Shown here one piece after another: positions 51,923-60,873 of a stretch of 64,000 nt of DNA (position 1 is its first letter; every line of letters begins with the position of its first letter). A program made the translations under genes and the position numbers. This DNA is from Kiritimatiellia bacterium (GTDB taxonomy: Bacteria; Verrucomicrobiota; Kiritimatiellia; RFP12; UBA1067): assembly GCA_017447805.1 (NCBI GenBank), contig JAFSMR010000039.1, positions 33,865-97,864 of the forward strand, read 5' to 3'. Below the pieces are notes generated by a model that saw only the letters and a program-made list of their open reading frames with translations, did not search any database and was not told where the DNA came from.

Positions 51923-53692
51923 TTAAGTAACTCCTGATTGTTCACGCGAAACGAGCGAAGCAAATAACCCCGGTTTTGTCGCAAGGTCGTTGTATGCTCC
52001 TTCTTGGGCAATATGCCCTGATTCCATGACAATGATACGATGCATATTGCGAACAGCAGACAAACGATGACTTATAAAGATTATGGTCTTATCCCGACAT
52101 TCTTCATCAAACATGCGCATTACCCTGTCTTGTGAAAGCTCATCCAAAGGCGCAGTTACTTCATCGAGCAGAACAACGTCTGGGTTCCCGACCAAAGCAC
52201 GAGCTAGTGCAATCTTTGATGCCTGCCCACCTGAAATCCCCTGACCATCCGCTCCGATTCCATAATCTAATGCCTTTAGGACATCCTCATCCTTCTGCAG
52301 CAAATCGTCAGTAAGCGCAACGGAATCCAGTATTCTTTTTAACTGCTTATCACCAAGACAAAGATTGCGTCCGACAAAAATGTTGTCACGAATTGTCCCT
52401 TGAAAAATGAACGGCTTTTGCGAGACATAGGCAACATGTCTGGTGTAATACTCAAAGTTTATTTCTTCAATGTTTTCCCCGCCTAAACAAATCGCACCGA
52501 ATGTTGGCGTAAGATGGCGTATGATCAATCGTAACAGAGTTGATTTACCGCACCCAGACGGGCCTACGATTGCGATATGCTCTCCCGGTTCCACGGAAAT
52601 GCTTATATGCTTAAGAATTGTTACTTTATCCGAAAGGGCGAATTGGACATCTTGTAAGGCCAATCTTGGTTTGATATTATTAGGCAATCGTCCTACGGTA
52701 TGACCATATGAATCGGGCAGTGCTTCAAGTTCCTTTAGCCGTAGAATCGCCTTCCTTGACTTTTGCCAACCAAGGACAATTTCTACGACCTGAACCATTG
52801 ACATATTAAATGCGCCGCATAAGGCGGAAAAGCCCATATAATCTGAAAAAGCGAATCCATTTCCTTCGTGAAATATGAGACACGCCGCTACTGAAAGAAC
52901 TGTGAACTGAGAAATCCCCCACACTAACCCACCAAGATTCCCGAAAAGAATGTGCAAGGTAAAGAGACGGATACGCATATCGCGGGATGGTGTGATTGTT
53001 TCAATTAGGCGTTTGATTGCAAATGGAAATGAATAAGAGGCCCTAATATCGGCCACACCACGCAATGTTTCTGTAGCGACAAGAAACTCTTTTTCCGATG
53101 CGTCTGCCTGTCGTTGGTCAATTGACATCACCTTTCTGTTTCCCAACAAAAATAGCAAATGAAGCGGTGTCATGCCGATAATGACGGAAGCCAGCAATGC
53201 ATTTCCTTGTTGATGGGCGAAATTGAAATTACTTTCTAAGAAATATGGAGAACCAAAATACATTAAGTAGACACTGATTATTAAGCCTAGTACTGCAAGT
53301 GGCGCATCCACCCAAAGAGAAAGATTGTATGTTGTCGCAGTTTCTGTATCACGAGATATGCGTCGAACGACTTTTTCTGGCTCATTCTGAAGTAGGAAGT
53401 CATTTCGAGTGAAAAGAATTTTTTTCATTAGCCTGATTGTCCAGTCGGATATTTGAATTACAGACAATTTCCCTCGAATGACAGAAGAAAACGTCCGCGC
53501 CACTACATTTCCAATGACAGCACACAAGAACAACAGCATAAGTTTAACAATATGAGATGCGCTATCTAGCTTACAATGCGCCAACACATCAGTTACGCTT
53601 TTAAGCGCCATTGGTTCAATGAATGACTGGCAGATCGGCAGAAACATTCCGATCAACCAGCAAATGACAAGCAGATTCAAGTATTTTCTCAT
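51923..53692 (-). CDS. ABC exporter (fused TMD-NBD) without a C39 peptidase domain
   Basis: 589 aa. Six-TM N-half, Walker A GPSGCGKST, signature ISGGQASK, Walker B VVLLDEVT. ATGA overlap with the upstream gene. Confidence 0.85.
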   Translation of the reverse strand: MRKYLNLLVICWLIGMFLPICQSFIEPMALKSVTDVLAHCKLDSASHIVKLMLLFLCAVIGNVVARTFSSVIRGKLSVIQISDWTIRLMKKILFTRNDFLLQNEPEKVVRRISRDTETATTYNLSLWVDAPLAVLGLIISVYLMYFGSPYFLESNFNFAHQQGNALLASVIIGMTPLHLLFLLGNRKVMSIDQRQADASEKEFLVATETLRGVADIRASYSFPFAIKRLIETITPSRDMRIRLFTLHILFGNLGGLVWGISQFTVLSVAACLIFHEGNGFAFSDYMGFSALCGAFNMSMVQVVEIVLGWQKSRKAILRLKELEALPDSYGHTVGRLPNNIKPRLALQDVQFALSDKVTILKHISISVEPGEHIAIVGPSGCGKSTLLRLIIRHLTPTFGAICLGGENIEEINFEYYTRHVAYVSQKPFIFQGTIRDNIFVGRNLCLGDKQLKRILDSVALTDDLLQKDEDVLKALDYGIGADGQGISGGQASKIALARALVGNPDVVLLDEVTAPLDELSQDRVMRMFDEECRDKTIIFISHRLSAVRNMHRIIVMESGHIAQEGAYNDLATKPGLFASLVSREQSGVT

Positions 53693-54279
53693 TTCGGCAA
53701 TGACTTTATTGATGGCCTATTCTCTGTTCTAACTTCAACCGTCAATAATTCTGAATGTCGTGGAAGAGAAAGCTCACTAACTTTGGTTGACAACCCTCGT
53801 CTTAACGCTTCCTTGGATGAGAAAACATGCCCTTTCTCTGTCATATAGTTTTGCCAACTATGTTTGGAAATTCCGGTTTTCCGTGCTAAGTATGAAATGA
53901 CATTCTTGTATTCCTGGCGTAACTTTCTATATTCAAGACCAAGTGCATCAAGAGAGTAATTCCCTGAGAGTTCGATGTTTACGGTGTGAGCAAGAAATTC
54001 TCCTTCGGGGATACATATTCTTTCAATACCTGCTGCGTATATTACAAGCGCGGCAGAGTCGCACCTCGCTGTATTGTATGTAATTAGCTTACAAGACAAA
54101 CCCTCTAGGATTTTAGCTATCCCCATTGCAACAGGAACAGAGCCACCCGGAGAATTAATGAGCAAATGCAATTCCTTTGTCGCATCAGGGACCTTGTCTA
54201 CTAGTGTATCAATCAGCGCTTGCGCCGTTATTGCCGTGACGGGCAAAGGGAAGTTGATGTATTTGCAAGCGTCACACAT
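53689..54279 (-). CDS. ClpP-fold (S14-like) serine protease, candidate leader peptidase
   Basis: 196 aa. LLINSPGGSV matches the ClpP INSPGG block. Ser (CDSAA) and His (LAHTV) align with the ClpP catalytic Ser/His by hand alignment. The Asp position is not conserved. Confidence 0.65.
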   Translation of the reverse strand: MCDACKYINFPLPVTAITAQALIDTLVDKVPDATKELHLLINSPGGSVPVAMGIAKILEGLSCKLITYNTARCDSAALVIYAAGIERICIPEGEFLAHTVNIELSGNYSLDALGLEYRKLRQEYKNVISYLARKTGISKHSWQNYMTEKGHVFSSKEALRRGLSTKVSELSLPRHSELLTVEVRTENRPSIKSLPK

Positions 54280-54297: not shown

Positions 54298-55440
54298 TTA
54301 TAAATACTTTGCCTCTGGTATTGTTTTTAGAAGACGGATGGCATTTTTCGCATTTTGCACCATGTCTTCGTCTAGATGAAAATTCCTCGCCACCAACTTC
54401 TGCACATGCCTTAAGAATAATGTAGCGCACGCTCTCGCCTGAACTTTCTTCATCTTGCAGAATGTTGTGGCACTTGCCGAGATGCCAATATCATCATGTA
54501 TCTTCAGATTCATGGCCGGACATTGCTTACAAACAGCATATATTGGGCAGTTCTTACATCGTGGATCAACAGGAATTTGCTTTATTAATTTTCCATTGCG
54601 TCTAATCCAGTCGGACTTTTCCTTCCCTATTACACACGAAGAAAACAAATGGCAGTTGTATTGTGTGCCATCTGCATCATAAGATACGAGATTGTTATTA
54701 AATGTGCAAAATGGATAGTAATCAGGAGTCTCTTTGAAAAACAACCCGACATCAAATGGAAAAATCCCAGACAGTTTGCCTTCATGTAAATCATCAATGT
54801 ACATTTCCATCAATTCTTCCAATTGTTCTTCGAAGACTATAATATCACTATCTTCCCATTTGAATCCAATGCCTACATCGACAGAAATTGAAATCCTTTC
54901 TGCGACCATTTCCTTAATCGTTTTGGCAAAAAATGGCAATGTATTCCTGAAAAGTACGATTTTGACACGTTCTTTGGGCCAATTATTCGTGAAGAATCTA
55001 TAATCTATGGACTTGTCCGTTCTTGTCAGTTTCTGCGTCTCATTCAATCCGTCAAGGCTTAGTGCGACATGGATCCGTTGACGATTCGCAAGTAGCCATT
55101 CCTTTATTTCATCGGTGAGCAATGTCCCGTTTGTTCTAACGTCCAAACTATATGGCACCGGCATTTCTTCGCTCCAGAGCCACTCCGAAACCGACTTAAT
55201 CAACCTGAAATTCAAAAAAGGTTCGCCGCCGAGAAAAGATATGGCAAGGGCAGATGTCCTATTATCATTTGCAGTACTTTGAAATTCCATCTTCAGAATT
55301 TCGCGACAACATTCAATAGACATGAATGATGTCGTTTTAAAACTTTCATAGCAATATCTACAGTTTAGATTGCAGGCTTGTGTAACAAGCAAAACAACCT
55401 GTTTTGTCTTTGTGTTTCCCAAATCTGTTTTGTAATACAT
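54298..55440 (-). CDS. Radical SAM/SPASM peptide maturase (paralog 2)
   Basis: CNLNCRYCYE (Cx3Cx2C) near the N-terminus. SPASM cysteines Cx12Gx4C (CTFNNNLVSYDADGTQYNC) and CKNCPIYAVCKQC, plus a later FCK. ATG at 55440 preferred; the ORF track has a GTG at 55470 abutting a hairpin. Confidence 0.85.
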   Translation of the reverse strand: MYYKTDLGNTKTKQVVLLVTQACNLNCRYCYESFKTTSFMSIECCREILKMEFQSTANDNRTSALAISFLGGEPFLNFRLIKSVSEWLWSEEMPVPYSLDVRTNGTLLTDEIKEWLLANRQRIHVALSLDGLNETQKLTRTDKSIDYRFFTNNWPKERVKIVLFRNTLPFFAKTIKEMVAERISISVDVGIGFKWEDSDIIVFEEQLEELMEMYIDDLHEGKLSGIFPFDVGLFFKETPDYYPFCTFNNNLVSYDADGTQYNCHLFSSCVIGKEKSDWIRRNGKLIKQIPVDPRCKNCPIYAVCKQCPAMNLKIHDDIGISASATTFCKMKKVQARACATLFLRHVQKLVARNFHLDEDMVQNAKNAIRLLKTIPEAKYL

Positions 55441-55471
55441 ACTTTCAATCTCGCAATCCGACTTGTTCACA

Positions 55472-55516
55472 CAGTGCTATGACAGTGCGATCTTTGTTCG
55501 TCCTGCCATAGCACTG
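55472..55516 (-). promoter_or_regulatory. Intercistronic stem-loop between the precursor genes and maturase 2
   Basis: In minus-strand RNA: CAGUGCUAUGGCAG - 17 nt loop - CUGUCAUAGCACUG (14 bp with one G-U). No U-tract follows. Confidence 0.6.
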
Positions 55517-55562
55517 ACTTTTCATTGTTGCAAGTTCTGTTGCATTATGAACAAGTTTTTTC

Positions 55563-55748
55563 TTACCTTGCCCATGCGCTGCAGCTGCCTTGGCAACCAC
55601 CACTGCAACCATTCTTACAAGACATATAGCAACCACCATCGCAACCGAAGTTGGTCGCATCATGCTTTACGGCGATATCACCATGATGCTCAGAATAAGC
55701 ACCAAGCATGGCTTCAACGGCCTGTAGTTCATTTGCATTGATCTTCAT
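55563..55748 (-). CDS. CxxxC-repeat precursor peptide A (61 aa)
   Basis: MKINANELQAVEAMLGAYSEHHGDIAVKHDATNFG-CDGGCYMSCKNGCSGGCQGSC-SAWAR. SD AGGAGGTG lies 6 nt upstream of this ATG. Confidence 0.8.
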   Translation of the reverse strand: MKINANELQAVEAMLGAYSEHHGDIAVKHDATNFGCDGGCYMSCKNGCSGGCQGSCSAWAR

Positions 55749-55898
55749 ATTTGTCACCTCCTTTCCGACCTTGTTGGTCTAATTGTTTTTAGAATGGATA
55801 TGGATAATCGACAATTTCCATTTCTAGATTTTCGTAGCGACAAGCTCGACAAGCATTACTACAACTCATATTACAACTATCATTTCTTTTATTTGTAT

Positions 55899-56135
55899 TC
55901 AGGATTGGATTCTAGCTACCTTATTATCTCGCCAGATGTTATTACAGCTACCAGCGCAACCTCCACCGCAACGGCTCATGCAGAACATATAACAACTGCC
56001 AGCGCAAGCGCTGTAGCAACCACCATCGCAATTCAAGTTGGTAACATCATGCTTTATAGCGATATCACCCTGATACTCGCAATAAGAACCTAACATTTTT
56101 TCAACTACCAGCAGTTCGTTGATATGGATCTTCAT
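55899..56135 (-). CDS. CxxxC-repeat precursor peptide B (78 aa)
   Basis: MKIHINELLVVEKMLGSYCEYQGDIAIKHDVTNLN-CDGGCYSACAGSCYMFCMSRCGGGCAGSC-NNIWRDNKVARIQS. SD GAGGGA upstream. Confidence 0.8.
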   Translation of the reverse strand: MKIHINELLVVEKMLGSYCEYQGDIAIKHDVTNLNCDGGCYSACAGSCYMFCMSRCGGGCAGSCNNIWRDNKVARIQS

Positions 56136-56156
56136 CTTTGAATCCCTCATTTTAAC

Positions 56157-56363
56157 CTAACGGAACGCTCTAACACATGTTCCAGAACAGCTTCCCATAC
56201 AATGATTCTCAAAACAGCAAAATCGGCATGTATGAACACAACTCATATAGCATGCACCACCGCAGTTAGTCGCATCTTGTTCAATTCTTACATTCCCACT
56301 CTGTCTTTGGAAAGAGTTCAACAGGATTTCTAAGTACCTTAATTCTTGCTCATCTATTTTCAT
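56157..56363 (-). CDS. CxxxC-repeat precursor peptide C (68 aa)
   Basis: MKIDEQELRYLEILLNSFQRQSGNVRIEQDATN-CGGACYMSCVHTCRFCCFENHCMGSCSGTC-VRAFR. SD GGAGGA upstream. Confidence 0.8.
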   Translation of the reverse strand: MKIDEQELRYLEILLNSFQRQSGNVRIEQDATNCGGACYMSCVHTCRFCCFENHCMGSCSGTCVRAFR

Positions 56364-56388
56364 TTCTACTATCCTCCTCTTCTTGAAG

Positions 56389-57591
56389 TCAAACGAAAAA
56401 AGGCGATGTTACCTTAAACGGATCAAGTTTATTTAAGACCTTGTATGCTTCAATTGCTCCTTTAGCATGTATCGCATCTGTTTCATCTAATACTTCTCGT
56501 CTCTGTGCAAGCATCTTGATTTGAAATTCGCAAGCAACAAATTTTTCTGCAAAAACCATCTTGCACCAGTTATGGTCGCGCCTCGCAACATTGCCACGAT
56601 AGCGATAGTTAAAACCGGCACATGTAGGACATACTCTTTTCAATATACACTCTCTACAATATGGATCCTCTGTTGCCTCTGCGCAACTCCATTCAAATTT
56701 TTCGAGTTCCTTTGCTTGGTCTCCTAAGACAATGGGCGCAAAAAGGTGGCAACCATACGCTTTCCCATCAACATCATATGTGACCATGTGTGTTCCTGTT
56801 CCACACCATTTTTCTTGTTTCAAATCTCGTATATTATTTGATGCTTTAATATTGAGCGCCCGTGATAGCAAGTTTATCGGTCTCAATTCAGGCTCATTCA
56901 AATAGGTCTCGCTCAGAGCATGCAGCTGATTAAGATAGGCTTCTGAATCATCGTTATCCCAATCAACACCTTGTGCAAGTGCCGCTTCCAAGGGATACCC
57001 TTTGCGTTGCAACTCCAAAATTCCTTCGGCGAGATGAGGCAATGTTTCCTGGGATATGGTCATGTGGAAACCTTGGTTCGGCCATGTATCATGAAAGAAG
57101 TCCATATCAATAGAACCTTTGTCGGTATCCCTGTTCTTTTTCTGCATTTCGGGCGTGCCATCATATGAAGCACCTACTGAAATGAGATGTTTGTGTTTAC
57201 GAAACCAATTCTTTCTTTCCTCGTCGAAAAGAGTCCCGTTGGTTGTAATGAAAAATATCCATGGCACAGGGAGCGGCTTCCCCTCGGTCCATTCAACAAG
57301 ACGCTTAATGAGATCGAAATTCATCATGGGTTCTCCTCCCATGAGATCAATCTCAAGTTCGTGGAACAGAGGGCTTGTCTGAACGACATGACATTCTTTT
57401 AAAATCAATTCTTTGGCAAGGTCAAATGACATAGTCTTGTTAGACTTATGTTTTTCGTAACAGTAAGTACAATTCAAGTTACATGCATGGGTAATCATAA
57501 GCATGCAAGTTCTTCGTCCAGTATATGGCGGGCGTTCCCAAATTTGAGTTGACATCTTAGGATTTCCCTCTTGACAATCATCTTTATTCAT
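56389..57591 (-). CDS. Radical SAM/SPASM peptide maturase (paralog 1)
   Basis: CNLNCTYCYE. SPASM cysteines Cx12Gx4C (CGTGTHMVTYDVDGKAYGC) and CRECILKRVCPTC, plus WCK. ATG at 57591 with AGGAAAG upstream preferred; the ORF track has a TTG at 57630. Confidence 0.85.
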   Translation of the reverse strand: MNKDDCQEGNPKMSTQIWERPPYTGRRTCMLMITHACNLNCTYCYEKHKSNKTMSFDLAKELILKECHVVQTSPLFHELEIDLMGGEPMMNFDLIKRLVEWTEGKPLPVPWIFFITTNGTLFDEERKNWFRKHKHLISVGASYDGTPEMQKKNRDTDKGSIDMDFFHDTWPNQGFHMTISQETLPHLAEGILELQRKGYPLEAALAQGVDWDNDDSEAYLNQLHALSETYLNEPELRPINLLSRALNIKASNNIRDLKQEKWCGTGTHMVTYDVDGKAYGCHLFAPIVLGDQAKELEKFEWSCAEATEDPYCRECILKRVCPTCAGFNYRYRGNVARRDHNWCKMVFAEKFVACEFQIKMLAQRREVLDETDAIHAKGAIEAYKVLNKLDPFKVTSPFFV

Positions 57592-57607
57592 AGTTATCTT
57601 TCCTAGC

Positions 57608-57796
57608 TTATTCGTATGGATTTTTACCAATCAATTCACTTTCGTTTTGTTGTGAAAAAATTCCGGCGCGGCAGGCTTTATGCACCGCGTTAATGACATA
57701 TATTATGCAGAAAACTGCTACGCCAAGCACTATCGCAAGAGTAGCGAACCATTTTAAACATGACAGAACTTTACGAAGCGGTTTCACGTTTTTCAA
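57608..57796 (-). CDS. Small single-pass membrane protein (hypothetical)
   Basis: 62-aa ORF with one TM helix (WFATLAIVLGVAVFCIIYVI). Non-ATG (TTG) start overlapping the upstream stop. Confidence 0.35.
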   Translation of the reverse strand: MKNVKPLRKVLSCLKWFATLAIVLGVAVFCIIYVINAVHKACRAGIFSQQNESELIGKNPYE

Positions 57797-58432: not shown

Positions 58433-58738
58433 TTATTTATTCACCCAGCAACCACCAGCGGCATTGCATTGTGGACATGCAGGTGCCATTACACAGTTCG
58501 TACACATCCGTTTACCACCATAACATGCAGTACACGCCCATCCCATAAATGTCCCCGTACCATTACAGACGGTGCATCTCATTTGCCCTGTTCCGTTGCA
58601 ATACGAACATAGGAACTTTCGCCCGTTGCATCGGGGACATGTTACCCAAACTAATTCTGCAATGGCAGAAAGTGCGATCATCGCAATTATAACAAGACCA
58701 ATTACTTTTAAGCGATTGAATCCGAGCTTCTTCTTCAT
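58433..58738 (-). CDS. Membrane-anchored DnaJ-type zinc-finger (CxxCxGxG repeat) protein
   Basis: 101 aa. N-terminal TM helix, then CPRCNGRK, CSYCNGTG, CTVCNGTG, CTACYGGK, CTNC and CPQCNAAG. Confidence 0.7.
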   Translation of the reverse strand: MKKKLGFNRLKVIGLVIIAMIALSAIAELVWVTCPRCNGRKFLCSYCNGTGQMRCTVCNGTGTFMGWACTACYGGKRMCTNCVMAPACPQCNAAGGCWVNK

Positions 58739-59076: not shown

Positions 59077-59463
59077 TTAGAGCGCGGCGATTTCGTCGGC
59101 GGAAAGGCCGGTCAGTTCTGTGATGCTATCCGCTGGAAGTTTCTTGGACAACATCCGACGTGCGCAGATGACAGCACCTTGCCGCTCCCCTGCATCAAAG
59201 ACTCGTCTGAATTCCTTGTCAATTGAACTGGAAATTGGTTCTCGAAGCACCTTGCTTAGAAAATGACATTCCAGCATAATTGTATCACGAAAGTGGTCAA
59301 TCGTATTGTCACAACGTTCCCAATCCTTCTTGACCATAGGCTTGTTTTCCAGCATTTCAACATACTTCTTGATGTTTATAATGCTGTCAGCCAAGTCGGT
59401 GATTCGACTGGCGATGTGAGCGTCCACCTCTTCTGGTGTCATCTTTACTTCGTGCAGCCCCAT
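59077..59463 (-). CDS. Hypothetical protein with an Rpn-C-terminus-like HTH tail
   Basis: 128 aa. The tail ...LPADSITELTGLSADEIAAL resembles the C-terminus of the upstream PD-(D/E)XK protein (VEQVSKVTGLTPTEVETL). Overlaps that gene by 19 nt. Confidence 0.45.
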   Translation of the reverse strand: MGLHEVKMTPEEVDAHIASRITDLADSIINIKKYVEMLENKPMVKKDWERCDNTIDHFRDTIMLECHFLSKVLREPISSSIDKEFRRVFDAGERQGAVICARRMLSKKLPADSITELTGLSADEIAAL

Positions 59464-60329
59464 AAAGTCTCTACCTCAGTAGGCGTTAAACCCGTAACCT
59501 TTGAAACCTGTTCAACTGACATTCCGACTTCTTTAAGATTACAAATGGTCTGCCTTAATCTTTCCTTCACCGCATCGCGCTCGGCATGTGCCGCGTCAAT
59601 TTGCATCTGCGCCTCTCTCTTGACATCGGCGATAATCGTCCTTCTGCTGCTCACGATGTCCCAGAACCTGTCGTATGCATCCATCTCCGCAGGGCTGTAG
59701 GCAGACTCCCGCACAATCTCCAGCGCTTGCCCCGTATGTGGATTTTCGAGAAGATCCTGCGACACTTCGTCTGCGCCATCATGGCCAATTTCGGTGAGGA
59801 AACGGAGCCATAGAACCTGCATCTTCTTCTCGGTGAGGTTCTTCGCCTTGAACTTGGGGAGTTCGACAAAGACAAGATGCAAACCTTCCAGCACCTTGTC
59901 GGAGTGCAGGTAGTGGACAAGGCGGTAGTAGTGGTAGTAATCGTCCAAATCCGGCTCAAAGGTTGCGTTTACGAGGTTGAGCGAATAAACCGGCTGCAGC
60001 AATTCGTACTCGTCGCCTTTCTCAAGCTGTTTAACGTATGCCTTTGAAGCGTTGAGCAGAACGCGCTGCTTGAACGATGTCGTCCACTCCATCTGCATCT
60101 CGACGATGAACTTGCGCCCGCCAGTCTCCTCGCACCGCACATCAACGGAAGTGTTCTTGTTGATCGGAGTGCGCGGAACCATTTCCGCCGGCAGATATTC
60201 TATCGACTCGACCTGTTTGCCCTCGTCAAGAGGCAACAATGCGTTTAGCAAGCTCGTGACGAGATTTTTATGCTCGCCAAAAACCTTCTTGAATGTCACA
60301 TCCGCCTTAGGATCGAGGTATTTTGCCAT
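59445..60329 (-). mobile_element. PD-(D/E)XK nuclease family putative transposase (Rpn / PDDEXK_2 type)
   Basis: 294 aa. N-terminal YLDPKADVTFKKVFGEHKNL..., DV..E..G..FIVEMQ nuclease core and FVELPKF block. Confidence 0.8.
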
Positions 60330-60388: not shown

Positions 60389-60599
60389 TATGGCCAAGCT
60401 ATTTTCAGCATTTTCGCGTCTGTTCAAAAGTTCAGGTATTCAGGGTCGGTCAGCTCGCCCTACCATTCAACCTCTCTTCGTTATTCCCAAGTGAGAATTT
60501 GGGTCCTATATTCTCATTTGAAAACTTATCAAAAACCTCAAATATCCCCCTATAAATGGTTGTTTGCCTCGAAATATTCCTAATGGAGGGAAAATCTTT

Positions 60600-60720
60600 G
60601 GTAGATAGGTCCACCGCATTGCAATGGAGCTATCTACCATGGTCGACGGGGCCATCGCATTGCAATGGAGCTATCTACCATGGTCGACAGGGCCACCGCA
60701 TTGCGGTGGCGCTATCGACC
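60600..60720. repeat. Three tandem hairpin-forming units of about 41 bp (REP-like)
   Basis: Units at 60600-60640, 60641-60681 and 60682-60720 (GGT[A/C]GA[T/C]NGG[T/G]CCA[C/T]CGCATTGC[AA/GG]TGG[A/C]GCTATC[T/G]ACC). Confidence 0.85.
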
Positions 60721-60873
60721 AAAAACGAAACCTCCGCCACTTTTCTGGCGGCACCTTCGCGGTGGCCTGAGGGGTGACCGAACAACCTCAGCGCCTTGAG
60801 CGTTAGACAAAAACTCCAACGACAACTCGAAACTCGAACTACGGCGGCGCGCGGCGCCGCCATTCGTCATTTT

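Follow-up and report, generated by a model that had tools for sequence, protein, structure and literature searches.

The 64,000-nucleotide stretch of contig JAFSMR010000039.1 from a Kiritimatiellia bacterium (hereafter the window) carries on its minus strand a compact, operon-like gene cluster, located at window 51.9-57.6 kb, that is predicted to produce ribosomally made peptides that are modified after translation (RiPPs). In the direction of the minus strand, it encodes a radical S-adenosylmethionine (SAM) enzyme, rSAM-2, the precursor peptides C, B, and A, a second radical SAM enzyme, rSAM-1, a ClpP-like protease, and an ATP-binding cassette (ABC) exporter. We propose, with moderate confidence, that this cluster belongs to an uncharacterized branch of the CXXX-repeat/PapB-like radical SAM RiPP systems, in which two maturases, both independent of a RiPP recognition element (RRE), would install thioether cross-links and divide the labour according to motifs of the core peptide. 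The preliminary description of this DNA had placed the precursor genes between two paralogous SPASM radical SAM enzymes, and both open reading frames (ORFs) are indeed found on the minus strand with three small Cys-rich ORFs (A, B, and C) between them:

56389-57630, minus strand: rSAM-2, predicted core radical SAM/SPASM maturase (longest ORF of 413 residues, from TTG)
56157-56363, minus strand: precursor C (68 residues, 9 Cys)
55899-56150, minus strand: precursor B (likely start ATG 56135, 78 residues, 8 CXXX-spaced Cys)
55563-55757, minus strand: precursor A (likely start ATG 55748, 61 residues, 6 Cys)
54298-55470, minus strand: rSAM-1, predicted accessory radical SAM/SPASM maturase (390 residues from GTG or 380 residues from ATG 55440)

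BLASTP analysis aligns rSAM-1 and rSAM-2 over their full length (31% identity over ~400 columns, E 6e-60), far beyond chance, and they are therefore diverged paralogs, as had been suggested. Their translations display a CX3CX2C cluster motif and a SPASM region with seven Cys:

55351-55374, minus strand: rSAM-1 CX3CX2C cluster motif, CNLNCRYC
57460-57483, minus strand: rSAM-2 CX3CX2C cluster motif, CNLNCTYC, invariant in the family
54457-54708, minus strand: rSAM-1 SPASM region, Cx12Gx4C ... Cx2Cx5Cx2C ... C, seven Cys
56563-56805, minus strand: rSAM-2 SPASM region, Cx12Gx4C ... Cx2Cx5Cx2C ... C, seven Cys

In family alignments, no clade departs from the three Cys of the CX3CX2C motif or from the seven SPASM Cys (100% conservation), and the SAM-binding motifs GGEP and TNGT are conserved in the rSAM-1 and rSAM-2 families. 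Since all of these Cys are kept, the possibility that one paralog has lost its cluster ligands was rejected, and the view that both retain intact ligands stands. The motifs initially quoted for the pair, CNLNC[RT]YC, Cx12Gx4C, Cx2Cx5Cx2C, the final FCK or WCK, and FF..[TN]WP, are all present, except that the spacing given as TLP....I.E is one residue too short: five residues separate TLP from I.E in both enzymes (TLPFFAKTIKE and TLPHLAEGILE).

A further suggestion, that neither enzyme has room for an N-terminal RRE, is borne out by several observations. There is no space for such a domain, which in RRE-dependent maturases is a fused or neighbouring PqqD-like winged helix of ~80-100 residues. 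The reading frames are closed by a stop codon located 3 codons before the longest possible start of rSAM-1 and 1 codon before that of rSAM-2, so that the stretch ahead of the first cluster Cys cannot exceed 32 residues in rSAM-1 and 49 in rSAM-2. With the starts that are likely from Shine-Dalgarno context and ortholog lengths, this falls to ~22-36 residues, that of rSAM-2 being either ATG 57591 (400 residues) or ATG 57555 (388 residues, preceded by a GAGGG Shine-Dalgarno). The AlphaFold2 models computed on the family alignments are of high confidence (rSAM-1: predicted local distance difference test 92.2, predicted template modelling score 0.88; rSAM-2: 90.3 and 0.87). They exhibit a disordered N-terminus (residues 1-16 in rSAM-1 and 1-14 in rSAM-2), a first barrel strand starting at residue 22 or 26, and a SPASM region followed by two long C-terminal helices, and neither contains a winged-helix or any other extra domain. 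Pfam analysis of both enzymes reports only Radical_SAM (PF04055) and Fer4_12 (PF13353), both above their gathering cut-offs. The PF04055 scores (38.4 and 36.4 bits, for a cut-off of 29.5) assign both to the radical SAM superfamily, while PqqD/RRE (PF05402) is not returned for either enzyme even at E ≤ 1. A cryptic RRE was likewise rejected, as none is found by Pfam at that threshold, in the secondary structure of the AlphaFold2 models, or in the neighbouring ORFs. As the gene-content comparison of related loci reveals no further gene conserved with the cluster, an RRE is not supplied in trans either.

Among proteins of known structure, the best sequence match of each enzyme and of the rSAM-2 profile is CteB (PDB 5WGG and 5WHY), the maturase of the thermocellin/SCIFF ranthipeptide, which the family-profile search returns with E 4e-29, as compared with ~1e-8 for an anaerobic sulfatase-maturating enzyme (anSME). 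Each of the seven SPASM Cys pairs with one of CteB in the alignment, the C-H-x-F motif following the second of them is shared, and CteB is the top Foldseek match of both models, which have in common with it a partial triosephosphate isomerase barrel and a SPASM region; both systems act on Cys-rich peptides. The next Foldseek matches are the anSME anSMEcpe and the triceptide cyclophane synthase ChlB, in either order, then TigE and SuiB. The seven conserved Cys and these top fold matches (CteB, anSME, and ChlB, all SPASM enzymes) place rSAM-1 and rSAM-2 in the SPASM subfamily, whose seven-Cys motif (CX9-15GX4C ... CX2CX5CX3C ... C) binds two auxiliary [4Fe-4S] clusters, and both are predicted to be intact maturases of ~380-400 residues with three clusters each. 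However, CteB possesses an N-terminal RRE of ~90 residues that is absent from rSAM-1 and rSAM-2, the alignments beginning at CteB residue 94-99. It also shares only ~21% identity with them, ends its SPASM pattern with a Cx3C spacing instead of Cx2C, and belongs to a family (TIGR03974) in which the two enzymes score 69-94 bits for a cut-off of 425.

The NCBIfam profiles point in the same direction as CteB, at a distance. The top match of both enzymes is the PapB family NF047865 (112.5 bits for rSAM-1 and 132.6 for rSAM-2; cut-off 340), followed by TIGR04115 (84.3 and 106.4 bits; cut-off 350), both profiles being covered end to end. The same picture is obtained with ten further relatives, for which TIGR04115 reports 77-156 bits and the PapB family is the top match in all cases tested. 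None of the enzymes and precursors tested attains the cut-off of a curated NCBIfam model. By score, both enzymes fall outside the PapB and TIGR04115 families; having no RRE, they also fall outside the RRE-dependent maturases. PapB-family enzymes form the Cys-Asp β-thioethers of freyrasin on CX3D repeats. The whole 330-position profile is matched, and the substrates have in common in-line repeats with a Cys at every fourth or fifth residue, but the window enzymes and their relatives score only 92-167 bits, and the window cores lack a conserved Asp or Glu acceptor. The CXXX-repeat system, a bioinformatic definition of NCBIfam/TIGRFAMs, combines the maturase TIGR04115, a second maturase, TIGR04119, and the targets TIGR04114 and TIGR04117. 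It resembles the window cluster by the Cys periodicity of its targets, by the 359-position, RRE-free TIGR04115 profile, and by its two maturase families, rSAM-2 matching TIGR04119 weakly (36 bits). It differs in that both enzymes remain far below the TIGR04115 cut-off and in that the second maturase of the window is a full radical SAM/SPASM paralog. A literature search on the CXXX repeat and TIGR04114-04119, on ranthipeptides together with Clp protease, and on ChlB returned no characterization of a window-type or CXXX-repeat system.

The absence of an RRE has precedents. CteB and PapB, both characterized thioether formers, are described as RRE-dependent, PapB using its RRE for leader docking (PMC9413430, PMC12373016). 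RRE-independent RiPPs have nevertheless been termed "well known", and the darobactin enzyme DarE binds its substrate DarA without an RRE, via a 60-residue N-terminal lobe (PMC10705402). ChlB, a SPASM enzyme of 375 residues, has been crystallized together with its substrate's leader (PDB 9GM3). An RRE-free family of thioether maturases would therefore be new, whereas the principle would not. ChlB and DarE belong to a class of 370-400 residues with RRE-free leader binding, as predicted for rSAM-1 and rSAM-2, and the fold of ChlB matches strongly (E ~1e-11 to 1e-12). They differ by their products, C-C or ether cross-links on aromatic residues instead of Cys chemistry, by a sequence similarity limited to the radical SAM core and, in the case of DarE, by the N-terminal lobe of ~60 residues, for which rSAM-1 and rSAM-2 have no space. 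With no RRE available, we infer that the leader has to bind either the catalytic body or the C-terminal helices.

The predicted precursors consist of CXXX repeats behind a conserved leader. A, B, and C share the M-K-I-x3-E-L start, an amphipathic helix, and the G-x-[IV] and D-[AV]-T-N motifs, and their cores exhibit a Cys at every fourth position. The core of precursor A (GCDGGCYMSCKNGCSGGCQGSCSAWAR) has DGG, YMS, KNG, SGG, and QGS between successive Cys and SAWAR after the last one, and its gene is preceded by an AGGAGG Shine-Dalgarno. The core of precursor B ends in CNNIWRDNKVARIQS. Precursor C comprises a helical leader (MKIDEQEL...DATN) and a core ending in CVRAFR, downstream of a GAGGAGG Shine-Dalgarno. 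A hidden Markov model (HMM) built from the precursors of the window and of other loci scores A, B, and C at 80, 92, and 87 bits, respectively, and weak matches of precursors with TIGR04117 and TIGR04114 amount to 17.7-21.3 bits (cut-offs of 50 and 20, respectively). Of note, distant single-enzyme relatives in an Opitutales metagenome-assembled genome (MAG; L029:9103-9639) and at L030:9096-9362 adjoin very long CXXX-repeat precursors, the L029 peptide of 178 residues containing ~30 consecutive CxxxC units, and the number of repeats can therefore vary greatly across the superfamily at large.

rSAM-1 has ~54 full-length matches among 5.8 billion proteins, with ~16 orthologs above 39% identity, and its best match in the genome scan (42% identity) originates from a Chlorobiaceae MAG. 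More than 700 relatives are found for rSAM-2, some of them in clusters devoid of a second radical SAM enzyme. An exhaustive HMMER scan of 1.84 billion representatives reports 196 proteins at E ≤ 1e-30, nearly all of 360-390 residues, which, judged by their lengths and identities, appear to be the whole superfamily (~200 clusters at 50% identity). A set of 174 loci, gathered by context look-ups and by scanning two collections, was classified with clade-specific HMMs, and three arrangements are seen around enzymes of the rSAM-2 clade. Single clusters, as in Selenomonadaceae, comprise the core enzyme, a precursor, and the ClpP-like protease, with or without the ABC exporter. Dual-A clusters, found in the window, Akkermansia, Chlorobiaceae, Firmicutes MAGs, and others, comprise the core enzyme, one or more precursors, an rSAM-1-type enzyme, and the ClpP-like protease, again with or without the exporter. 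Dual-B clusters, from Prevotella and from human gut and rumen samples, have the dual-A arrangement with second enzymes from a sister clade. The gene order rSAM-2, precursor(s), second radical SAM enzyme, and ClpP-like protease occurs at 11 distinct loci with an rSAM-1-type enzyme and at 11 more with the sister clade. Members of the rSAM-1 clade are always encoded downstream of precursors that belong to a core-clade enzyme. In neighbour-joining trees, the accessory A and B enzymes form one clade separate from all others, each of the two being monophyletic, and the core-enzyme tree mirrors the accessory-enzyme tree, which indicates that core and accessory enzymes would form an old, co-evolving pair. 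By these distributions, rSAM-2 is assigned to a large core clade, which can also act without a partner, and rSAM-1 to a small accessory clade; the single clusters have probably lost the accessory enzyme.

Two enzymes had been taken to imply either a division of labour, between Cys subsets or between precursors, or sequential chemistry. Comparative genomics upholds the division, since the accessory enzyme tracks an additional motif of the core peptide, but does not assign different precursors to the two enzymes. In 13/17 dual-A peptides, as compared with 0/23 in the other classes, the last Cys is followed by a Trp or Phe no more than five residues away; counted by locus, this holds for 10/11 dual-A loci and for none of the 22 others. 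This motif often reads [YF]CDG[NS]SGxCW, and takes the forms C-S-A-W-A-R, C-N-N-I-W-R, and C-V-R-A-F-R in the window. Similarly, CxxCY occurs in all 11 dual-B peptides and in 0/29 elsewhere. Fisher tests of the motif-enzyme association return p ~1e-7 to 1e-10, values that are indicative only. The pattern is nevertheless clean, and suggests that labour may be divided by core-peptide motif rather than by precursor, the core enzyme taking charge of the CXXX ladder and the accessory enzyme of one motif-specific modification beside a Cys-aromatic pair.

In the mechanism that we propose, the short helical leader would dock directly on the catalytic body of each enzyme, and rSAM-2, as the universal core maturase, would install thioethers along the CXXX repeats. 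A substrate Cys thiolate would bind auxiliary cluster I at its open iron site, the 5'-deoxyadenosyl radical would take a hydrogen from the acceptor residue, and the S-C bond would then form. Such bonds reach the acceptor C-α in sactipeptides and C-β or C-γ in ranthipeptides. PapB provides a precedent, as auxiliary cluster 1, in direct contact with the substrate, is where its thioether cross-link has been resolved (PMC12373016 and its reference 27). rSAM-1 would add one motif-specific cross-link near the Cys-aromatic pair, after which, by family membership and conserved linkage, the ClpP-like Ser-His protease would cut off the leader and the ABC transporter would export the product. A bolder version, doubtful in our judgement, is that the accessory clade (rSAM-1 and its sister) makes a cross-link new to radical SAM enzymes, joining a Cys to a nearby aromatic residue (C-W, C-x-x-W/F, or C-Y), so that the product would be a thioether ladder with a Cys-aromatic cap and both enzymes would read the short leader directly on their catalytic body.

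The preliminary description left two chemistries open, thioether cross-linking with a non-RRE mode of leader recognition or oxidation of Cys at C-α/C-β, and found the size and layout of the enzymes closer to those of anSMEs. If one or both enzymes oxidized core Cys in the manner of anSME, the products would be, for example, formylglycine or thioaldehyde-derived, and no thioethers would be made. The length, the single-body layout without an N-terminal domain, and the SPASM fold are indeed those of anSME (PDB 4K36), with a fold match to anSMEcpe of E 1e-11 to 1e-13, and the conservation of nothing but Cys in the cores would suit a chemistry on Cys itself. The resemblance ends there. The anSME family TIGR03942 scores 40.1 and 49 bits for a cut-off of 349 and covers the N-terminal half only, CteB is better than anSME by 20 orders of magnitude in the profile search, and the His after the second SPASM Cys is that of CteB. 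The anSMEs of the 4K36-4K39 structures possess eight SPASM Cys, and their auxiliary clusters are fully ligated, whereas seven Cys are conserved here; SPASM enzymes with seven Cys include CteB, QhpD, and Tte1186 (PMC10352776). Moreover, anSMEs act on sulfatases, and no sulfatase is encoded nearby, the genes for leader peptides, a protease, and an exporter being those of a RiPP cluster. Oxidation of the anSME type is therefore improbable. By sequence and Cys pattern, both enzymes are thioether-maturase-like, their likeness to anSME being one of size and layout, and of the two chemistries thioether cross-linking is favoured by the CteB and PapB-family profiles, the seven Cys, and the RiPP context.

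The number of precursors raises another question, as each paralog might serve its own subset of A, B, and C, or the paralogs might be redundant. The window combines three diverged precursors with two enzymes, and locus L005 has four precursor genes. Nevertheless, both enzymes are kept at single-precursor loci (L003, L007, L010/L011, L012, L022, L099, L100, and L131), which argues that labour is not split by precursor. Of these, L010 and L011 each have one A-type precursor (L010:3698-3928 and L011:2010-2240), nearly identical to peptide A, and both enzymes, intact and 94-95% identical to those of the window, and redundancy is at odds with paralogs that are ~30% identical and co-diversified. We consider this option very improbable. 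The least probable, in our view, is that rSAM-1 is non-catalytic or chaperone-like, a stand-in for the RRE that would bind the leader and present the peptide to rSAM-2 within a heterodimer. No RRE is found anywhere in the cluster, and some Bacteroidales RiPP clusters pair a radical SAM enzyme with a "pseudo-rSAM" (PMC10352776). However, the whole rSAM-1 clade keeps CX3CX2C, GGEP, TNGT, and, at 100%, the seven SPASM Cys, a signature expected of an active enzyme, and the core enzyme manages without a partner in single clusters having the same type of leader.

Several points weigh against the thioether reading and its motif-based division of labour. The homology to thioether maturases amounts to 20-21% structural identity, and the HMM scores reach about one third of the curated cut-offs. 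The Pfam SPASM model PF13186 returns no match, and the last SPASM spacing is Cx2C where Cx3C is canonical. An open iron site on auxiliary cluster I is deduced from the Cys count, and the core clade has additional near-invariant Cys (C29 and C354), one of which might be an eighth ligand. The residues between the Cys of the precursors are highly variable, and none stands out as a conserved acceptor comparable to the freyrasin Asp. Finally, the Fisher p values overstate the support, because the motifs were defined post hoc and the loci share ancestry.

Downstream of rSAM-1, the cluster ends with two genes:

53689-54279, minus strand: ClpP-fold serine protease, probable leader peptidase (196 residues)
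51923-53692, minus strand: ABC exporter, transmembrane domain and ATPase (589 residues)

The ClpP-fold assignment (PF00574, E 8e-16, 58.8 bits for a cut-off of 20.2) is accompanied by a SxGG motif, Ser75, and His98, all invariant in 12 orthologs. As no Asp is invariant, this protein keeps a Ser-His dyad rather than a triad. The protease is present in every cluster type. The ABC exporter, which shares the 4 nt at its start with the ClpP-like gene, resembles the NHLP-type and bacteriocin-type ABC exporter families (185-210 bits), contains no C39 peptidase domain, and is found at many but not all related loci.

The G+C content is 0.41-0.42 over window 52-58 kb as compared with ~0.50 in the flanks, and a PDDEXK_2/Rpn-family gene lies ~2 kb upstream of the cluster (59445-60329), a gene of the same family also flanking the cluster in L010. 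Together, the G+C dip and this nearby gene suggest that the cluster block may have been horizontally acquired as a mobile island. A promoter and terminator scan returned no signal above the shuffled expectation. Two other features nearby are a 101-residue ORF on the minus strand (58433-58738) and a 41-bp tandem repeat with 3 copies, 86% matching (60599-60721), in an intergenic stretch with many overlapping short ORFs. The 101-residue ORF encodes a hydrophobic N-terminal segment and six CxxC pairs, of which several read CxxCxGxG as in DnaJ zinc fingers, but has no family match and is not conserved with the cluster at other loci.

Other lineages display additions that the window lacks. The core maturase bears in some of them a 250-residue N-terminal extension (L012:1004-2971, protein P0086 from an Akkermansia MAG; P0082; and ~10 other orthologs of 560-655 residues), which is absent from the window rSAM-2. 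It was rejected as an RRE and is instead a divergent domain resembling the sigma-70 factors of the extracytoplasmic function type (TIGR02937, E 1e-7, below cut-off; Sigma70_r4_2, E 3e-4), an unusual fusion for a radical SAM enzyme. At L001, a separate gene encodes a similar protein (533-1147), and the next ORF (1119-1811) carries an anti-sigma-like HxxxCxxC motif. Some dual-A loci have another precursor gene on the downstream side of rSAM-1, and they also encode a GAF-domain protein and a subtilisin-like S8 peptidase (L001:5142-5348, L001:5918-7543, and L005:1107-3303), which may be added regulation or processing parts. The single-enzyme cluster of a Selenomonadaceae locus (L013:1-17001) stands amid an ERF recombinase, DUF932, DUF3846, and a type I restriction-modification system, and, given these neighbours, probably resides on a prophage or an integrative element.

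If the bolder version given above is correct, rSAM-1 and rSAM-2 would define an RRE-free mode of recognition for thioether-forming SPASM enzymes that RRE-based genome mining systematically misses. Large surveys of radical SAM RiPPs required an RRE first (PMC10288494), and families of this kind therefore fall outside them. The superfamily, although small, recurs in gut and rumen bacteria, including Prevotella, Selenomonadaceae, Akkermansia, Alistipes, and Lachnospiraceae. The natural series formed by the core enzyme alone, the core enzyme with accessory A, and the core enzyme with accessory B, each accessory being tied to its own peptide motif, makes the division of labour testable, and the short leader together with the compact enzymes could be of use in peptide engineering, as is the case with PapB.

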